A stretch of 64,000 nucleotides of DNA from Mayamaea pseudoterrestris (Eukaryota), in NCBI GenBank assembly GCA_027923505.1, contig BROI01000017.1:186001-250000 (forward strand). The letters are read 5' to 3'. Both the position numbers and the translations under genes were made by a program. The notes beneath the pieces were generated by a model. The model made no database searches. It saw only the letters and a list, made by a program, of their open reading frames with translations, and was not told the origin of the DNA. How positions within the stretch are numbered: the stretch's first letter is position 1; each line of letters opens with the position of its first letter. Shown piece after piece: positions 52,346 to 64,000 of this stretch.

Positions 52346-54679
52346 ATGGAGGAACTCCAAGATGCTATTGAGGACGCTCAGTATGTCAACGCCATTGCTA
52401 CTCAAGATGATGGTCCTCGACCGGTAGTAGCATGGGAGAAACCAACCGATGAGCAACTGCAACAATGGATAGCTACCAAGCAACCCAAACTTGACTCGAT
52501 GGATTGGGTTCTTTCGCATGCGATTGGCTATTTTCTATTCAGCCAATATGTAAAAAAGGAACGAGATGAATATACACGGATGGTTTTTTGTGAGGAGGTT
52601 CAGCGACTATTAAAATTGCCAGACAAGGCTCGCGTCGGCAAGGCGACATTTATATTGGCACAATTTCTCCAAGTAACGCGATCTAACAGCGACGAGGCAC
52701 TACCATCTTCTGTTAAAACGGAAATTATTGAGACAGACTTGACTAGACCCATTCCATTAAAGCAAGTGTCCGAGAAGGAAATCCAAAAATTGATAGACAT
52801 GAGCATGGATTGGCCGAGTTGTAGCGAGTCGCTCATTGGCTTGAAGGGACCTCTCTTGAAGGAATTTAAGCAAGACTTTGTCGATGCAGAGACGCAAAAT
52901 GAAATTTGGGTTAAACGAGAGTCGGTCCGTGGTTGTGGCGAGGCTCGCACGAGTCTTTCGTACCATGCGCTCAGTGTTCCTATACCTCCCGACGGATCCC
53001 CGGCCGTTTCCGATCAGACACTTCCAACGAGCGTCGATGGAGACGGATCGTCGTCATCAATTTCATACAACGGCAACGCACCTGCTTTTGTAAATGACAA
53101 GACGGAAGCAGCAGTAACCGCGCAAACCGTCGCGTCGCACCAGAGCCGAACGTACGCGGCAAGTATGCACGAAGTAGCAGGCCGAAAGGGTGGACAACAT
53201 GTAAAGAACAACATAAACATGCAGCAATCAATTGGGGAGCTGCTTTTCATGGATGCTGAGCGTGTAGTCATGGAGAGTTTGAAGCGAGACTATTGGGACG
53301 ACTTTAAAGCGTCGGAACATTTTATAAAGTTCAGAAACTTTTTGTGGTATCAAGACCGTCGCGTCAAGCCAGATGATTTTTATACCATGAGAGTTCTTGG
53401 ACGTGGAGGTTTTGGGCTTGTTTATGGTACGTTGTTTGCGTGTTCTCCGAGTTGCGATTGTTGTCGGGTGTAAATTGCATGAATCGTGTTGCGTTGGCTC
53501 ATTCCTCACTTCGCTATATCTGTAGCCAGCAAAAAAGGCACTTCGGGAAAGCTGTACGCAATGAAAGTTATGAATAAAAGGCGGATCAAGATGAAGAAGT
53601 CAGAGCAGTTGGCAACAAATGAGCGACAAGCTCTCGGTGACGTTGACAGCTTGTTCGTCGTCAATCTAATTTACTCCTTTCACTCCAAGGATGATGTTTA
53701 TTTAATTCTTGATCTCATGACGGGCGGTGACTTGGCCTACCACTTGCAAATAAAGGGTCGCTTCTCAAAAAAAGAGTGTTTGTACTACGCAGCCCGTATC
53801 ATGTTTGGACTCCAAGACCTTCACAACGCGTAAGTATTGTGTGCAGCGAAGTTTGCTGACATACATAGTGTGATCGATAGTCCGTCGTGACTCATATTCT
53901 AATACTTCGCTACCCATGCATATAGAGGGTACGTTTACAGAGATATGAAACCAGAGAATTGTTTGCTATCCGAGGATGGTCGTGTAAAAATTACAGACTT
54001 GGGTCTCGCCGTCAAGCTAGTCCCTGATCTACACGGTGCAGCCGGAACGAGAGGATATTGGGCTCCAGAAATGCTTCGACGAGACAACACTGGCAAACGA
54101 AAGACTTATGGACAATGCGTTGACTGGTTTAGTTTTGGGTGCTGTGTCGCAGAGTTTATATCAGGTACGAATCCTTTTCGGACTGAAGAAGCTCTGCAAT
54201 TCGGCATGGACAAGGGCAAACCCACCAAGGAGAAGGCGATTGATTGCGCAACGCTAGAAATGGATCCAGTGTTTAAATCGGAGAAATACGAGCCCGATGC
54301 CGCCGATTTTTGTAGACGATTGCTGGACAAGAACGAAAATACACGCCTCGGCGCGAACGGATGCGAAGAAATCAAGGCACACCCTTGGTTCAAGCACACG
54401 AATTGGGAGAGTATCCTTGCTGATAGTCAGTTGCCTCCATTTCTTCCGCCCAAGGATGTTAACGCTGCGAGCCAGTCGGAGATTGGTCAGTTTGCTCTAG
54501 ACAAGCAATACCAGGAGACAACCCTCGACGACAAGGATGAGTTGGTCTACAAGGATTGGGATTGGACGAACCCACAGGCATTTGGTGCTGAAGTGATTGA
54601 ATTTTTAATGTACGAGCGCCAAACAGGCCGTCCTTTGCTTCCCATGTCGCAAGCAGGCGGTTGTTGTGTTATTCTATAA
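52346..54679 (+). CDS. G protein-coupled receptor kinase (GRK)-like AGC kinase with RGS-homology domain and CaaX, 3 exons
   Basis: Introns 53427-53525 and 53830-53925. N-terminal MEELQDAIEDAQYVNA, RH-like IGYFLFSQY, RVLGRGGFG, YAMKVM, YRDMKPEN, ITDLGLA, GTRGYWAPE. Ends GCCVIL. Confidence 0.88.
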
Positions 54680-55856: not shown

Positions 55857-56177
55857 GGCCGAAAATGCTCGAAGAACGTCACGCGATCTTTCGAATCTGC
55901 GTCACAGCATCCGGGTTAGCTAACGTTTCGAATGGGACGACTTTTCGGCCGTTGCCGACAACTGACCCTATTTTGGCCTTCATCTTGGACTAAACTATTC
56001 GACAAATTCTCCTTATTGTTTAGAGATGGAGTGGATTCGCCGGATATAAAAGCATGCATTAGCGAGGAGTTCTTGCCAACCTCTTCATTCGAAAGGTTGG
56101 GACTGTCATTTTATTAAACTCGGACGCCGCGGCACACATTTCTCATCTTGCCTTGCACAATCACACAACATACAACA

Positions 56178-58358
56178 ATGAAGTTCACGACACGGATACT
56201 TGCCCTCGCAGCAGTCATTGGTGCTGTTAAGGCCAGCACTGGCGTGGAGGAGCGCATCAGTCCTTCACCATCTGGCGGTACATCGGACGCACCATCCGAC
56301 GTTCCTTCGTATGCTCCAACTCTTCCCGCAATGGACACCTTTGCTCCGACAGTCATCGATACACTGTCGCCTACACCGATTGATACCGTTCCACCCACGC
56401 CAATTGACTCACTTGCCGAAGACACGGACGCACCAACCCTCACACCAACTGCGGCATCACCAACAATTTCACCAACTATTCAGCCAGCAACGGCAGCACC
56501 AACAGTTTTGACCGTCACGGATGCACCAACACTGCAGCCGACGACGACTGCAACAACGGCCTCATGCGATGCCAGCACTGAAACTCTTCAAACGTGCTTT
56601 GTAAACGAGTTGAACGGGGGATCCAGCTGTGATTCGTGTGTTGCGACGGTGCTGCAAGATTTGAACATCACCAGCGGCTCCTTGTCCTGCGAGGACTATG
56701 AGTCTCAAGTTTGTGCAGCCATATCAACTTGCTCGTGCGGAACATGCATTGACGAGTTACAAGACTTTTTGGATTGCAGCATCGGATCCGCCATTGGATG
56801 CAGCTTGAACTGCTTACAGCCCACCGTAGCTCCAACATCTGCTACAGTCACTGACCAGCCCACATCAGTTCCCGCCGAAGAAACCATTGCTCCAACCGTT
56901 GCTCCAACAGTTGCGGCGACTACAGTCCTTCCAACAGCCACGCCAACCTTAATCCCAACCGTCGCCGCAACAGATGCTCCTACTCTTGCGGCGACACCTG
57001 AACCAGGGTGCGATGGAAGCACTGATACTCTTCAGACTTGCTTCGCCAACAACTTGAACGGCGGAAGTGAATGCGATCAATGTGTGGCAACTATTCTTCA
57101 AAATATTGGAGCAGTTGGTAGAAATGGCGACGTAAGCTGCGACGATTACGAAACAGAAGTATGTGAGGCTCTCTCTGATTGCCCTTGTGAGGGATGTCTT
57201 CCTGATCTGCAAGACTTTTTGAACTGCAATATTGGACCAGCCGTTGGATGCACTTTGAGCTGCCTTTCACCAACCTCTGCTCCGGCGCCGTCGGCATCGA
57301 CAAGTGTGCCGACTATAGCCGCTGCCACTCCGGCGCCAACGTCCTGCTCCGATAGCACCGAAACTCTTCAAACATGCTTCGCCGACGAGCTGGGCGGCTC
57401 CACCGAGTGCGACATGTGTGTTGCTACCATACTGCAGGACATTGGAGCAGTCGGAAGCAACCCTTTCAACCAAACATGTTCCGACTATGATAGCCAAGTG
57501 TGTGCTGCCATAAGTGCGTGCCCTTGTGGAACGTGCCTCGACGATGTCCAAACATTCATCAATTGCAATGTCGCGCCAAATATTGGATGCTCTCTGACAT
57601 GTTCCGACGAACAGCCAGCGACGAATGCAACTTGTCCCGTCACGCAAGACGACATTACGACGTGCTTCGCCGCAGAAGTCTTTGAGTCTACATGCGGAAG
57701 TTGCTTGCAAGATCTGGCTGGAAACTTGAGCGCGACCGCTGGTATAAATGCGAATGATCTTATAGCAGGTGGCATGGCTAACCTTTCGGACGTACTTGGC
57801 GGCTCATTCGGTGACTTTGGGGAAGACTTCAACTGCTCCTTCTACCAAGACAGCATGTGCCAAGTCGTGTCAACCTGCGACTGCGGAACATGCTTTGACG
57901 ATGTGGCAACGTTTTTAGACTGCAACATTGGTGCAGCCACTGGTTGCTTTTTAAATTGCGACGACGGCGAGACTGTTGCTCCTTCCGCAGCCTCCGTGAC
58001 AGAAGCACCAGTGGCGGCTCCATCGTGCGCACAAATTGAGGAAGAAGCAATAACTTGTCTAGCCAATGCCGGCGATATGGGACAAGAATGCGACAGGTAC
58101 GTCTGATGAACTGCCATAGTTCATGCGACTTGAAGTTTACTTCCCTCGTTCTTAACTAACTCTTGCTCGCCTGCATCGTCATTGTCAATCAGCTGTGTAG
58201 CAACAAGTATACCGAGCGACACTACTGATTGCTCAGCATTACAAGATGGCGTCTGCTCAGCAATCGCCGGCTGTCCTTGCGGCGACTGCAGCTCCTTGGT
58301 CGAGCAATATCTAAGTTGCAACTTTGAGAGTCAAGGTGCTTGCGGAATTTCTTGTTAA
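56178..58358 (+). CDS. Secreted Pro/Thr-rich protein with five 12-Cys modules, 2 exons
   Basis: Signal peptide MKFTTRILALAAVIGAVKA and APT/PT linkers. Intron 58097-58192 completes the fifth module (..CDSCVATS..CPCGDC..CGISC*). Confidence 0.8.
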
Positions 58359-60857: not shown

Positions 60858-60923
60858 AAGATTAAATGGTTCATACTTTACACGTATCGATCATACCATA
60901 CCGTGTAATAGTCGAGATCCCAT

Positions 60924-62780
60924 CTATTCCTCTTTTCTAGAGTATTCTTCTCCATTGACCGACTGCAATAGCTCAATCGCTGGAGCAATTTTACGTTCCA
61001 AAGTACGCCGATCGTAAGACGTGCGCTGCATTTGGATGCTGTGGCCCATGAACAAAGCCAGACTCTCTAGTTCCTTCTCGGACGCATCAGATTCACGAAC
61101 GTGAGTTACAATCATGTCACGTAGTAAGTGAGGATTGGTCCGTTTGCCAGCGTGTTGGTAACAAGCTCTAGATACCGTTTGATAGACACTATCTCGCGAA
61201 AAGGGATTGCCAGTCTTAGGTTGGACAAAGAGGAAAGAAGTAGACGGTTCCAGCTTCGGTCGCCAATTGCCGACAAACTCGTCAACATCTTTTGACAAAG
61301 CAGCCGACAGCATCATGGGTGGCCGCTCTCCATATGTTTCGCCTGTCTTATAGTCGCCAGGGTTATGCTTGATGAACCAGCAACCCTCCACCGATTCTTC
61401 CTTGATAAGTGTTCGACCGATCTCGAGCTCGCGTATCGTTCGTTGTCGATCAGGAACATTTGTAAATATCGCCAAAACAAGATACCTCTGGCAAGCTGCG
61501 GCGACTTTACGCTGCAGCGATTTCAAAGCATCCTTGCTAGATTTGCTTCTTGTACCCGCCGTTAATGAATGTTCCGCATCAACAACAAGTCGGTCAAAGT
61601 CCGCCTTGGTCGCTTGCACCACTCTCAAATACTCCGGCCAGGACAACCACTTTTGTCCTTCATTACTAGACTTTGGAGCCAGCTTGGCTTGCTTATGAGC
61701 ATTGCGATGCAGCCGTCGAAGCTCCTGAATGACTGGGATGTCTTCATATGTTTTGCGATTGTCGCCACCGACCGACTCGCTGGCAAAGCAAAACTTGAGC
61801 AGTTTAATAATTCCGCGAAGCAAGTTGGCTTCGTAGTTTACAGAAATTTGGCGCTCCTTGCGAAGCCACATGACGAATTGAATGATAGCAGTGGCAGAAT
61901 CCTTGTCCTTGGAGGACAAAATGTCTTGCAGAGACAGGGATGCGTCGGCTTGTGCAACCTCATTCATCTGCTGCGCCACGTACCATCCAAGATATAGTTT
62001 GGCATGCACCATGTACACATTGGCTGTCGCTGGACGTATTGGATCTTCCTGTGAGAGTATCGATGGTTCCGTCATGAACTGATAAAACTGATCGAGCTGG
62101 TTTGACAACGAGGGAAACCTCATCATCTCTAATTTGTACGTGTTGGTTTTATTTCGTCGACGGACTGCGGCTGCCTGATTGACAACGACGGCTTTGTAGC
62201 GTGGCTGCTGTCGCTCTGGAGAAATGTTTGTGTCTAACTCTCCTTTTGGGTCTTTTGTCGAACCAGTTTCCATGGCCTTCATCGTCGTATATTGCCGCGT
62301 ACTTGTTGCCTGCTGCAATGGTTCCATGGGCAGCATTCTTTCCTCCGGTTCCTGTTCATGTCGCTCCAAAGCACTCATGACTACTGATCGTATCTGATTC
62401 GCCATTAACGGATTGATTTGAAAGTCTCGTATGAGCATTTGCGAAACTTCGGCGGCATTCAAGCCTTGGCAGATGGCGAGCAAAGGACCAAATGAACCTT
62501 GAACGGTGGTCGACGTTGATGAGTAGAGATTTAGAGCTTGGAGACTCTCTACAATAGTTACCTTTTCGTCTGCAGACCAATCATTTTGAATCAGTGCATC
62601 ATAAAAAGGATCGGAGGCACTGGACAAGATGCAATTTGTTGATTGATGACGAAGAGAGCGTTTAGTAATTGGCGCTCCAAAACTTCTGTGGCTCGAATGA
62701 CGAGCCTTGGTCGATATAGGCTGCAAATTCTTGAAAATTCGTGGAACTACAAACAATCCAATCCATAGCAACGGAATCAT
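60924..62780 (-). CDS. Tyrosine recombinase / phage integrase-family protein with intact catalytic residues
   Basis: Motifs PDRQRTIREL (R), DYKT (K), NPHLLRDM (HxxR), ALFMGHS (H), RTSYD (Y). Upstream helical core-binding-like region. First ATG at 62780; intronless. Confidence 0.85.
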   Translation of the reverse strand: MIPLLWIGLFVVPRIFKNLQPISTKARHSSHRSFGAPITKRSLRHQSTNCILSSASDPFYDALIQNDWSADEKVTIVESLQALNLYSSTSTTVQGSFGPLLAICQGLNAAEVSQMLIRDFQINPLMANQIRSVVMSALERHEQEPEERMLPMEPLQQATSTRQYTTMKAMETGSTKDPKGELDTNISPERQQPRYKAVVVNQAAAVRRRNKTNTYKLEMMRFPSLSNQLDQFYQFMTEPSILSQEDPIRPATANVYMVHAKLYLGWYVAQQMNEVAQADASLSLQDILSSKDKDSATAIIQFVMWLRKERQISVNYEANLLRGIIKLLKFCFASESVGGDNRKTYEDIPVIQELRRLHRNAHKQAKLAPKSSNEGQKWLSWPEYLRVVQATKADFDRLVVDAEHSLTAGTRSKSSKDALKSLQRKVAAACQRYLVLAIFTNVPDRQRTIRELEIGRTLIKEESVEGCWFIKHNPGDYKTGETYGERPPMMLSAALSKDVDEFVGNWRPKLEPSTSFLFVQPKTGNPFSRDSVYQTVSRACYQHAGKRTNPHLLRDMIVTHVRESDASEKELESLALFMGHSIQMQRTSYDRRTLERKIAPAIELLQSVNGEEYSRKEE

Positions 62781-63046
62781 GGGCGCTTTTGCTAGGTTTA
62801 AAAGGCTTACTAGCCGCGAAGGAAGCGACGTTTGATCATAGATCCAGCTGGTCGAATGCTTGTCGCGTTTCAATCCAACTGAGTACCGAAAAGATTAGTT
62901 GACGTTTTGTGCGCTTGTCACGCTTCCACGCAATGGCGCGCCTTTGACGAAAGATCCTTGCTGATGCGGTGACTCATACTTGGAGCATTGACAAGACCAC
63001 AGGCTCTCTTTATTCATCTTAATATACAAGGGCAACCCTGACTCTC

Positions 63047-64000
63047 ATGTCCTCGATGCTCCTCTCCTTTCGTGCTTCACGTCTACTAGTATTGAGTTTG
63101 CTTGGAACGTCTGCAACTCACCGTGTCGCTGCCGCCTTTGTCGTTCCAACAGTTTCTTCGGCGCTCGTCGGAAGCAGCAGCTTTTCTCGCTCGTATCCAT
63201 CATATTCCACTACATCAAGACTATTTTCTTCTCAAGAAAAGAAAGCAGAGGAACCGCAGCATACAATCAGTAGCGACAAGGAGCAAGAAATGTCAGTCGA
63301 ACTCTCGGAACTCCAAGCCGCCTACCAGACGCACCAACAAAACGCGCCCAGGCTCTCCCACGCGCAGGAGGTAAGAAGCCTTGTGGCGTACAATCACGGG
63401 TTTGCCGTACTGAGTACCTTTAGCAAGCACCATTCCGACTTTCCGGCGGGTGGCGTCGTGGCCTTTGCTCCCGATGAACAAGGAAGACCAATCATGGTCC
63501 TTTCCAACTTGAGCACGCACAAGCAAGACTTGAAAGTCAACAGCAAGTGTAGCTTGACAGTTGCTACCAAGGAATTCAAAGGATTGGCGGATGCCCGCGT
63601 CAATCTCATGGGGACTTGTCACGTTTTGGAGAGGGAAACGCCCGAGCACGCGCAAGCGAAGGAGTTTTTCCTCGCCAAGCATCCAGATAGTTTTTGGATC
63701 GAGTTTGGTGACTTTGATGTGATGCGAATGGATGTTGAACATGTTCGCTTCGTTGGAGGGTTTGCCCGCGTTGGAAGCATTTCTGCAGCCGACTATGCCA
63801 AGACGCAACCCGATTCCATTGCGGCGTTTGGCGGCCACGTGGCCAAGCACATGAACGACGATCACATGGAGGCAACCATTGCCATGGTGCAAGCCAATAT
63901 TCCAGGGATGAAAGATCCAAACAACAAGGTTACTTCTGCTGTCATTACATCGGTGGATTCCTTGGGCATGTACGTCAAGGTGACCCGCGAATCAGGCAGT
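63047..64000 (+). CDS. Plastid-targeted HugZ/HOZ-like split-barrel heme-binding protein with DUF2470 (partial, runs off the window; absent from the ORF track)
   Basis: Hand translation: signal ending AAA-FVVP, then GFAVLST, DEQGRPI, LSTHKQDL, ARVNLMG, HPDSFWIEFGDF, RFVGGFAR, HMNDDH. Confidence 0.9.
   Translation, partial: MSSMLLSFRASRLLVLSLLGTSATHRVAAAFVVPTVSSALVGSSSFSRSYPSYSTTSRLFSSQEKKAEEPQHTISSDKEQEMSVELSELQAAYQTHQQNAPRLSHAQEVRSLVAYNHGFAVLSTFSKHHSDFPAGGVVAFAPDEQGRPIMVLSNLSTHKQDLKVNSKCSLTVATKEFKGLADARVNLMGTCHVLERETPEHAQAKEFFLAKHPDSFWIEFGDFDVMRMDVEHVRFVGGFARVGSISAADYAKTQPDSIAAFGGHVAKHMNDDHMEATIAMVQANIPGMKDPNNKVTSAVITSVDSLGMYVKVTRESGS

Follow-up and report, generated by a model that had tools for sequence, protein, structure and literature searches.

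Here we describe a nuclear gene in a 64,000-nucleotide stretch of DNA from the diatom Mayamaea pseudoterrestris (GenBank assembly GCA_027923505.1, contig BROI01000017.1, positions 186,001 to 250,000 of the forward strand; hereafter the window) whose product carries the full catalytic set of a tyrosine recombinase. Our analysis leans towards the view that this is a vertically inherited, imported, cyanobacterial-type site-specific recombinase that acts on organelle DNA, of which import, organelle DNA as the substrate and the kind of reaction are the parts that we infer. What the analysis shows is the fold, a conserved catalytic set, kin in cyanobacteria, the behaviour of a host gene and orthologues whose N-termini resemble presequences.

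A predicted tyrosine recombinase with a complete catalytic set

In the translation of open reading frames (ORFs), the gene is a single uninterrupted ORF of 618 codons plus stop, starting at the first ATG of a frame that is open back to a TTG at 62873. Codon arithmetic on this translation places R, K, HxxR, H and Y exactly where the original prediction, made from the sequence of the window, had put them, and the protein carries the ordered R...K...HxxR...H/W...Y that characterizes the tyrosine recombinase superfamily. Its coding sequence, domains and catalytic residues are as follows; confidence in the AlphaFold2 (AF2) model is given as the predicted local distance difference test (pLDDT).

60924..62780, minus strand: recombinase coding sequence, 618 amino acids plus stop, single exon, aligned end to end with diatom orthologues
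62619..62780, minus strand: N-terminal presequence, residues 1-54, AF2 pLDDT below 50
62343..62618, minus strand: five-helix N-domain, residues 55-146, conserved and possibly SAM-like, from AF2 of the domain alone
62223..62342, minus strand: disordered variable linker, residues 147-186, pLDDT below 50 and poor alignment among orthologues
61671..62123, minus strand: helical core-binding (SAM-like N-terminal integrase) domain, residues ~220-370, from hhalign, VIA and Pfam in relatives
60945..61670, minus strand: catalytic domain, residues ~371-612, from PF00589 in 22 of 44 relatives and a PHROG match at 513-581
61446..61448, minus strand: Arg445, first of the catalytic arginines, within P-D-R-Q-R-T, unchanged in 44 of 44 and 14 of 14 sequences
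61347..61349, minus strand: Lys478, the beta-hairpin catalytic Lys, within D-Y-K-T-G, invariant in the 44- and 14-row alignments
61119..61130, minus strand: His551-x-x-Arg554, with R554 invariant and H551 in at least 90% of 44 rows
61041..61043, minus strand: His580, in M-G-H-S, in at least 90% of 44 rows and invariant in 14
61014..61016, minus strand: Tyr589, predicted nucleophile, invariant in the 44- and 14-row alignments

The 44-sequence alignment of relatives extends down to 24% identity, and even so R445, K478, R554 and Y589 never vary, with H551 and H580 each kept in at least 90% of the sequences; in the cyanobacterial homologue L081, H551 is replaced by Gln. By itself the window protein (P0001) has no match in Pfam at E≤1, against PDB sequences at E≤10 or in NCBIfam, and its sole direct match is a weak one to a PHROG integrase (E 5.8e-4, residues 513-581). 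Its relatives are more informative: PF00589 was matched by 22 of the 44 at E≤0.1 (best 1.6e-8), and N-terminal SAM-like integrase domains were found in a few (Phage_int_SAM_4 in 4/44, Phage_int_SAM_1 in 3/44). When the family profile was compared by hhalign with a profile of seven canonical cyanobacterial recombinases, residues 229-581 of P0001 aligned to positions 9-276 of the canonical proteins over 259 columns, with a probability of 96.4% and E 1.1e-9.

The AF2 model of the window protein, built from the family alignment, has a mean pLDDT of 83.6 and a predicted template modelling score (pTM) of 0.66, and low confidence (pLDDT <50) is confined to residues 1-54 and 147-186. A Foldseek search of the PDB with this model returned 36 matches at E≤1e-3, and every one of those listed is a tyrosine recombinase (XerA, XerH, Cre, Tn1549 Int, XerD and lambda Int). 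In VIA alignments, Cre and Tre matched model residues 218-610 with Z 16.1-16.8 and a root-mean-square deviation of 3.6-4.6 Å over 281-306 residues, alongside XerH (Z 16.4), XerA (15.8), integron integrase (15.2), Tn1549 Int (14) and lambda Int (12.7); type IB topoisomerases (Z 10-11), Flp (8.5) and protelomerase (7.5) scored lower. The alignments to Cre begin at model residues 218-241, and the catalytic-domain-only structures 3nkh, 5dcf and 1ae9 align from residue 370-377 onward. Based on the family profile, the AF2 model and the Foldseek and VIA matches, residues ~220-610 make up a complete core-binding plus catalytic clamp, and the helical, core-binding-like region that had been suspected ahead of the catalytic part is thereby recovered in the AF2 model and in its alignment to Cre. 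As the hhalign result and the match of the model to Cre, XerH and XerA take the motif reading beyond chance, we regard the protein as a predicted tyrosine recombinase that is very probably active, and the conserved residues, hhalign and the fold match all support its earlier description as catalytically complete.

The N-domain that precedes the linker was modelled with confidence when taken alone (pLDDT 90.1, pTM 0.81). Its best fold match in a wide VIA search is a SAM-like domain at Z 6.2, a value within the noise for helical bundles, followed at Z ~4 by numerous SAM, HRDC and integrase N-domains, while Foldseek of the domain found nothing at E≤0.001 and atlas scores stayed below 0.9. In two family members (P0165 and P0384) Pfam recognizes a true SAM domain in the corresponding place, and from the model the N-domain is possibly SAM-like.

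N-terminal extensions and predicted import

In the alignment, the cyanobacterial homologues begin at the N-domain, and extra N-terminal residues are found only in the eukaryotic proteins. In the window protein these residues comprise a hydrophobic core (residues 2-13), in which the 9-mer from residue 4 has a Kyte-Doolittle value of 2.87 and qualifies as signal-peptide-like, and then an Arg/Ser/Lys/His-rich stretch without acidic residues; the first acidic residue is D57, in keeping with the acid-free start of about 55 residues described previously. A small residue followed by Phe (ASAFAP-type) at the cleavage site is the mark of the bipartite plastid signal of diatoms. As had already been pointed out, the window protein has no clean version of this motif: its presequence contains no [AGSC]F, and its only Phe, Phe16 in R-I-F, follows Arg-Ile rather than a small residue, which makes the compartment of the window protein less certain than that of its orthologues.

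We therefore looked at N-termini across the family, using 73 diatom-tier proteins with a Met start and a long N-extension and a crude heuristic of our own, which is not SignalP, ASAFind, HECTAR or TargetP. It asks for a 9-mer with a Kyte-Doolittle value ≥2.0 in the first 50 residues and an [AGSC]-F 4-28 residues after it. A hydrophobic, signal-peptide-like core was present in 53 of the 73 proteins and was combined with an [AGSC]F just after it in 44, while the same test at internal offsets of 60, 100, 140, 300 and 400 gave 2, 2, 0, 0 and 11 of 73. None of the 26 named non-diatom members passed (oomycetes 0/5, amoebae and choanoflagellate 0/4, green algae 0/17). Mitochondrial presequences typically appear as basic N-termini with few acidic residues, and the first 25 residues of all five Saprolegniales and of Balamuthia, Dermamoeba and Salpingoeca contain 0-1 acidic and 3-7 basic residues, with the basic stretches of the Saprolegniales ending near an R-x-F-S-type motif; judged by sequence, these N-termini look mitochondrial. 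The suggestion of an organelle presequence is better supported in the diatom orthologues, 44/73 of which combine a signal peptide with a small residue and Phe, while the presequence of the window protein itself is atypical. Overall, it is likely from these sequence features that the protein is targeted to an organelle.

A different reading of the N-extensions is that they are not import signals at all, and that the protein is a nuclear host recombinase or DNA-binding factor that acts on nuclear repeats, in programmed rearrangement or in transcription control. The window protein's lack of a canonical diatom cleavage motif would fit such a role, as would the acidic N-terminus of the Acanthamoeba member and the possibly SAM-type N-domain, with its two family members bearing a Pfam SAM domain, since SAM-type domains are common in nuclear regulators. 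This reading does not account for the enrichment of signal peptide plus [AGSC]F at diatom N-termini (44/73 against 0-11/73 at internal offsets), nor for the basic, acid-poor N-termini of 8 of the 9 heterotroph members. Domesticated Crypton recombinases do act in the nucleus, according to a survey of Cryptons (PMC3212892), but the DUF3504-type domesticated forms described there differ from the present family, which has fully kept its catalytic set, and no relative scanned against Pfam matched DUF3504 at E≤0.1. We consider a nuclear role unlikely.

It could also be that the protein is imported into an organelle and does something other than recombining two chromosome sites, such as plasmid integration or excision, relaxation of DNA in the manner of a type IB topoisomerase, or structure-specific cleavage of replication and recombination intermediates. 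The targeting evidence is the same for this role, diatom plastids and plasmids encode recombinases of their own according to literature listings, and the catalytic domain superposes on type IB topoisomerases at Z 10-11. That superposition covers ~180-200 residues, however, as against ~300 residues and Z 16-17 for the two-domain clamp with Cre and Xer, and our analysis gave no sign of plasmids across all the lineages that bear the gene. Taken together, we find this alternative quite improbable.

Family range and cyanobacterial relatives

The family is wider than the original prediction supposed and occurs in diatoms, many green algae, Saprolegniales oomycetes, Acanthamoeba and Balamuthia. An exhaustive representative search returned 953 cluster representatives at E≤1e-3, of which 160 remain at E≤1e-30. 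The named members in the Chlorophyta include those of Chlorella, Micractinium, Parachlorella, Coccomyxa, Trebouxia, Elliptochloris, Botryococcus, Chromochloris, Raphidocelis, Monoraphidium, Volvox, several Chlamydomonas, Picochlorum, Nannochloris and Tetraselmis. A member is present in each of the five Saprolegniales for which data exist (Saprolegnia, Achlya, Thraustotheca and two Aphanomyces), and besides the amoebae Acanthamoeba and Balamuthia, members were found in transcriptomes labelled Dermamoeba and Salpingoeca. The two closest relatives of the window protein share 61-63% protein identity with it. With the Saprolegnia protein as query, identities step down through 84, 80, 72 and 71% and then to ≤49%, with one copy per species among the matches listed; Phytophthora, Pythium and Albugo do not appear among the 120 matches listed of 225. 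In the more distant tier, no streptophyte or red alga was present among the 120 matches listed of 507.

The closest kin outside eukaryotes are cyanobacterial. A family-specific pattern searched in 185,579 prokaryote species genomes hit 57 stretches, of which 12 encode relatives, and all 12 are cyanobacterial by title. The eukaryote profile matched cyanobacterial ORFs of 564-607 amino acids at E 2.7e-157, 2.9e-149 and 3.7e-145, and because these matches span profile positions 24-548 (G001) or 7/9-541 (G124, G401) of 562, the likeness includes the N-domain. The eukaryotic proteins thus share full-length, collinear similarity with an unnamed family of large cyanobacterial recombinases (560-700 amino acids); as an individual example, the Saprolegnia protein is 34% identical to that of the cyanobacterial locus L081 over 422 amino acids (E 1e-65). 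Within cyanobacteria the family is patchy: of 401 genomes sampled, 12 have a match at E≤1e-30 and only 3 at E≤1e-145, and a single genome can hold several copies, with 12 matches in one case.

To place these proteins we built a careful tree (LG+G4) from 50 of 76 rows, with which a quick tree of all 76 rows agrees; L093, which coincides in position with L081, and five short rows (L085, L086, L088, L092 and L102) were left out of the trees, and the root was placed by choice on distant cyanobacterial paralogues. With supports given as ultrafast bootstrap / Shimodaira-Hasegawa-like approximate likelihood ratio test (SH-aLRT), all eukaryotes form one clade (100/100), within which the diatoms (100/100), the Saprolegniales (100/100), diatoms plus Saprolegniales (99/96), the green algae (96/98), Acanthamoeba plus Balamuthia (95/92) and the Bacillariaceae Nitzschia, Pseudo-nitzschia and Cylindrotheca (99/96) are recovered, and the eukaryotes are sister to one cyanobacterial subgroup (92/87). 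The eukaryote clade therefore nests within the patchy cyanobacterial family and the tree follows host groups, a pattern most simply read as one exchange of the gene between cyanobacteria and an early lineage of eukaryotes, after which it was inherited vertically and lost many times. This does not agree with the Crypton- or DIRS-type origin that the original prediction implied, which we reject because the closest kin outside eukaryotes are full-length cyanobacterial proteins. Its plastid-only framing has to be given up as well, as the family is also found in Saprolegniales, Acanthamoeba and Balamuthia, with mostly mitochondrial-looking N-termini.

In sequence records, these proteins are named only “hypothetical”, “integrase” or “Tyr recombinase domain-containing”. 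Some gene models in the family are probably faulty: that of Micractinium conductrix is fused to a saccharopine dehydrogenase domain and that of Aphanomyces invadans to an ankyrin-palmitoyltransferase, another family member is named LicD, and the Chlorella variabilis model lacks the P-D-R-Q segment.

A probable host gene rather than a mobile element

The absence of a transposon context that had been noted for this gene is confirmed, as there is no reverse transcriptase (RT), gag or capsid gene adjacent to it and no terminal direct or inverted repeats were found bracketing it. There is no second copy or fragment of the recombinase in the 64-kb window, and its GC content at third codon positions (0.48) lies within the range of its neighbours (0.47-0.57). 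A protein search identified 193 relatives at E≤0.001. In the 120 listed (41-64% identity, mostly 61-99% query coverage), the named species are six diatoms with a single listing each: Fragilaria crotonensis, Cylindrotheca closterium, Nitzschia inconspicua, Pseudo-nitzschia multistriata, Seminavis robusta and Fistulifera solaris.

Gene neighbourhoods were compared across 80 metagenome loci, 34 of them diatom-tier. Two unrelated diatom-like contigs share neighbours with the window: L002 carries genes for a CDC20-like protein (53% identity over 627 amino acids) and a DUF3007 protein beside its recombinase copy, and L004 has glyoxalase and RGS-kinase genes directly upstream of its own. In the window these four genes lie 5-18 kb from the recombinase, in a rearranged order. 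In picoeukaryote-like contigs the flanks are stable: three groups, with recombinase identities of 56-60% or 67-77%, have the upstream neighbour in common, and two of the three also share at least 10 flanking families. In five other diatom-like contigs (L025, L026, L028, L029 and L032), the recombinase sits amid paralogous zf-MYND and Sel1-repeat genes, with 21 ORFs in the 5 loci; these genes represent the expansion of a host gene family rather than a transposon.

Four public runs, all from one study and searched as contigs, contain the locus at 95-99% likeness, and no joints or empty site at the locus were found in them. Of the 19 strain or allele variants listed from these runs, 11 fall in codons 32-49 (62634-62687), within the presequence region, several of them in the same codon, and those listed in the catalytic half are synonymous or conservative; there are 44 further variants. 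Among viral contigs, 29 pattern matches yielded no relative of the recombinase. The checks that had been proposed for separating an inherited from a mobile gene thus favor inheritance in the single listing per named diatom, the host-following tree and the synteny with L002 and L004, and most diatom-tier contigs share no neighbour with the window. Overall, we hold it highly likely that this is a host gene and not a mobile element.

The main alternative here is a low-copy, Crypton-like DNA transposon that consists of the recombinase only, has no long terminal repeats and is still mobile or was very recently fixed. Such elements would be inconspicuous: according to the same survey (PMC3212892), Cryptons end in direct repeats of just 4-6 bp rather than in terminal inverted repeats and are present in very few copies, and the CryptonS group, whose termini are short direct repeats that mostly read TATGG, was reported from seven oomycetes, including Saprolegnia parasitica, and one diatom. 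On the strand of the recombinase TATGG occurs at 60896, 24 nt after the stop codon, as such an element might have it, but the other two occurrences, at 61330 and 62763, are inside the ORF, the 5' spacer has none, and there is no bracketing pair. The patchy and multi-copy cyanobacterial relatives could likewise be taken as traces of mobility, whereas in eukaryotes the named genomes appear once each among the matches listed, identities within the Saprolegniales fall stepwise (84, 80, 71-72%) with no Phytophthora, Pythium or Albugo among those listed, the tree follows the hosts, and neighbourhoods are shared. The lack of joints or empty sites in the four runs and of relatives in viral contigs also stands against this alternative, and targeting-like N-extensions would be unexpected for a transposase. 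We regard it as very unlikely.

Comparison with known systems

Among characterized recombinases, the Xer proteins are similar to the window protein in several respects. XerH of Helicobacter and XerA of archaea have the same two-domain clamp fold as the model (Z 16.4 and 15.8), XerC/XerD, XerH, XerA and XerS have the same catalytic residues, and the only curated-family matches of the relatives are weak ones to XerC, XerD and XerA models. The homologue in L081 is also Xer-like in being a stand-alone recombinase gene amid ordinary chromosomal genes. Xer proteins are half as long, however, and lack the extra N-domain and linker of the window protein, which is nucleus-encoded; they act at a dif-like site with an FtsK-type partner, for which no counterpart is known here. 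Equivalence to XerC, XerD or XerA was rejected, as the relatives score ≤29.6 bits against cut-offs of 220-335 (TIGR02224, TIGR02225, NF040815) and the window protein has no match. Cre of phage P1 is the best structural match to the model, covering both domains (281-306 of ~320 residues), but it is a phage enzyme that acts on loxP, with only 10-12% identity to the window protein and no match at the sequence level.

Cryptons of the CryptonS group resemble the window gene in being eukaryotic, nuclear, recombinase-only and without long terminal repeats, and in occurring in stramenopiles, while Crypton-derived DUF3504 genes have not kept all catalytic residues, unlike the window protein (both as described in PMC3212892). 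By description, the window gene is set apart from CryptonS in that it behaves as a single inherited host gene, lacks a TATGG pair and has cyanobacterial kin; the two features tested for CryptonS membership, namely dispersed copies or a host-independent distribution among the named genomes listed and bracketing TATGG at the window gene, were both absent. A DIRS/Ngaro/PAT-type retroelement was ruled out by the EMP70 and CREG/PNPOx neighbours and by the absence of RT, RNase H or gag genes and of flanking repeats. FimB and FimE, of ~200 amino acids and without extra domains, are invertases with an adjacent invertible segment. The closest cyanobacterial homologues similarly have a segment bracketed by inverted repeats upstream (see below), but there is none beside the diatom gene.

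Tyrosine recombinases tied to algal organelles have been reported before as tyrC and int genes of plastid genomes and plasmids. In the literature as listed, these are organelle- or plasmid-encoded and treated as foreign insertions, and by description this separates them from the window gene, which is nuclear, conserved and apparently imported. Searches of a full-text collection that lacks most subscription journals brought up no account of a tyrosine recombinase that is encoded in the nucleus and targeted to an organelle, and the main text of an ochrophyte plastid-proteome paper (PMC5462543) does not mention a recombinase or integrase.

Proposed function and mechanism

If the protein is indeed an imported recombinase that acts on organelle DNA, its parts suggest how it would work. 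A cleavable targeting peptide would be followed by the five-helix, possibly SAM-like domain and by the core-binding and catalytic domains, which would clamp DNA as in Cre, XerH and XerA. After import into the plastid in diatoms, or into the mitochondrion in Saprolegniales and amoebae, four subunits would bring two copies of a specific organelle DNA site together in a synapse, and Tyr589 would cut one strand pair to form a 3'-phosphotyrosine link and then a Holliday junction, after which the second strand pair would be exchanged. With sites in direct orientation, multimers of the organelle chromosome would be resolved in an Xer-like manner, and with inverted sites the intervening segment would be flipped.

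A bolder proposal, which we offer only tentatively, is that a nucleus-encoded recombinase of cyanobacterial type, old and patchily kept, controls the topology of organelle chromosomes by site-specific recombination, being sent to mitochondria in Saprolegniales and amoebae and, in diatoms and green algae, to plastids or to both organelles, and having been re-targeted between organelles during stramenopile evolution. Such control could consist of resolving multimers that arise from recombination-dependent replication, or alternatively of driving the flip-flop of large inverted repeats that has so far been credited to homologous recombination.

There are a number of observations that speak against an imported, inherited recombinase working on organelle DNA. 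No target site for the recombinase was found. As the family is absent from most eukaryotes and was found in 12/401 cyanobacterial genomes, it cannot serve a general housekeeping function. Regarding import, the window presequence lacks the [AGSC]F motif, the N-termini of its two closest relatives are uninformative or truncated, the Acanthamoeba gene model begins with an acidic N-terminus, green-algal N-termini are not assignable to one compartment, and the heuristic behind the diatom counts is crude. Regarding inheritance, just 3 of the 34 diatom-tier contigs (L002, L004 and L005) share neighbours with the window, L002 is alone in this among the 13 whose flank reaches 5 kb or more, and the search for a second copy was confined to the 64-kb window. 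Lastly, large repeats are present in all five Saprolegniales mitochondrial DNAs and in none of Phytophthora, and Pythium has repeats of ~20 kb, according to a published study (PMC5093560). Because Pythium has such repeats and no homologue among the matches listed, the link between the recombinase and organelle inverted repeats is just partial.

Loci of the cyanobacterial homologues

Upstream of the closest cyanobacterial homologues, at a distance of 0.5-0.9 kb, we observed a segment of 125-241 nt bracketed by inverted repeats of 21-29 nt.

L081:6601-6891, segment bracketed by inverted repeats
L083:4413-4699, segment bracketed by inverted repeats
L094:335-502, segment bracketed by inverted repeats
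L095:4144-4316, segment bracketed by inverted repeats

From the alignment, the arms in L081 and L083 are 96-97% complementary within each locus and ~70% alike between the two. The segment could be an invertible switch or a small miniature inverted-repeat transposable element (MITE). When the orientation of the inner segment was compared between L081 and L083, the reverse orientation scored 12.0 and the forward -2.5 against a shuffle maximum of 10, which is weakly positive and too weak to establish inversion. By analogy, such segments beside the cyanobacterial genes would favor inversion as the reaction, and we treat them as a lead.

A family of small ORFs (70-123 amino acids) with weak ribbon-helix-helix (CopG) matches adjoins the recombinase in 8 of 23 cyanobacterial loci, also including L089 and L101.

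L087:6429-6641, small CopG-like ORF
L092:6401-6610, small CopG-like ORF
L097:3987-4316, small CopG-like ORF
L098:577-945, small CopG-like ORF
L099:642-956, small CopG-like ORF
L104:762-1040, small CopG-like ORF

One of the six scanned is above the Pfam cut-off, and all eight loci belong to more distant paralogues. The product may be a regulator or directionality factor.

Flanking genes in the window

The recombinase gene is separated from its neighbours by two short spacers, whose lengths in the ORF coordinates are those given by the original prediction.

60858..60923, no strand: 3' spacer of 66 nt to the convergent EMP70/TM9SF gene
62781..63046, no strand: 5' spacer of 266 nt, head-to-head with the CREG/PNPOx+DUF2470 gene, without TATGG on the recombinase strand

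The EMP70/TM9SF neighbour was identified at a Pfam E-value of 2.7e-172, and the 266-nt spacer presumably holds the promoters of both the recombinase gene and the CREG/PNPOx+DUF2470 gene. The latter (63047-64000, plus strand) encodes a hydrophobic N-terminus ending in A-A-A-F, a plastid-type motif, and contigs from three of the runs part from the window sequence within it, beyond 63891, pointing to either a structural variant or an intron boundary at that place. At 56148-58106 (plus strand) lies an ORF for a Thr/Pro/Ala-rich protein of 642-652 amino acids with a signal-like N-terminus, several copies of a Cys-rich module and no Pfam family match, and its DNA contains internal repeats of 336 nt and short 12-nt periodic repeats. 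An RGS-domain ORF (52346-53473, plus strand) and a kinase-domain ORF (53945-54679, plus strand) are in separate frames in the window, while in L004 the two domains are joined in one ORF of 801 amino acids, and the window ORFs probably belong to a single gene that an intron or a frame break interrupts.

Significance

Organelle genomes are multi-copy and constantly recombining, and many exist as isomers. To our knowledge, the enzymes described for the recombination of organelle DNA are homologous-recombination proteins and junction resolvases, with no site-specific recombinase among them. A nuclear-encoded, catalytically complete recombinase with organelle-type presequences would therefore add a new class of player to organelle DNA handling, and it would provide a concrete gene to knock out when asking how organelle chromosomes stay monomeric or get flipped. 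The family also presents a case of one imported protein that apparently changes compartment between related lineages. If its site were found, it would make a natural, organelle-active pair of recombinase and site that would interest plastid and mitochondrial engineering. The diatom gene thus hints at an undescribed way of handling organelle DNA.

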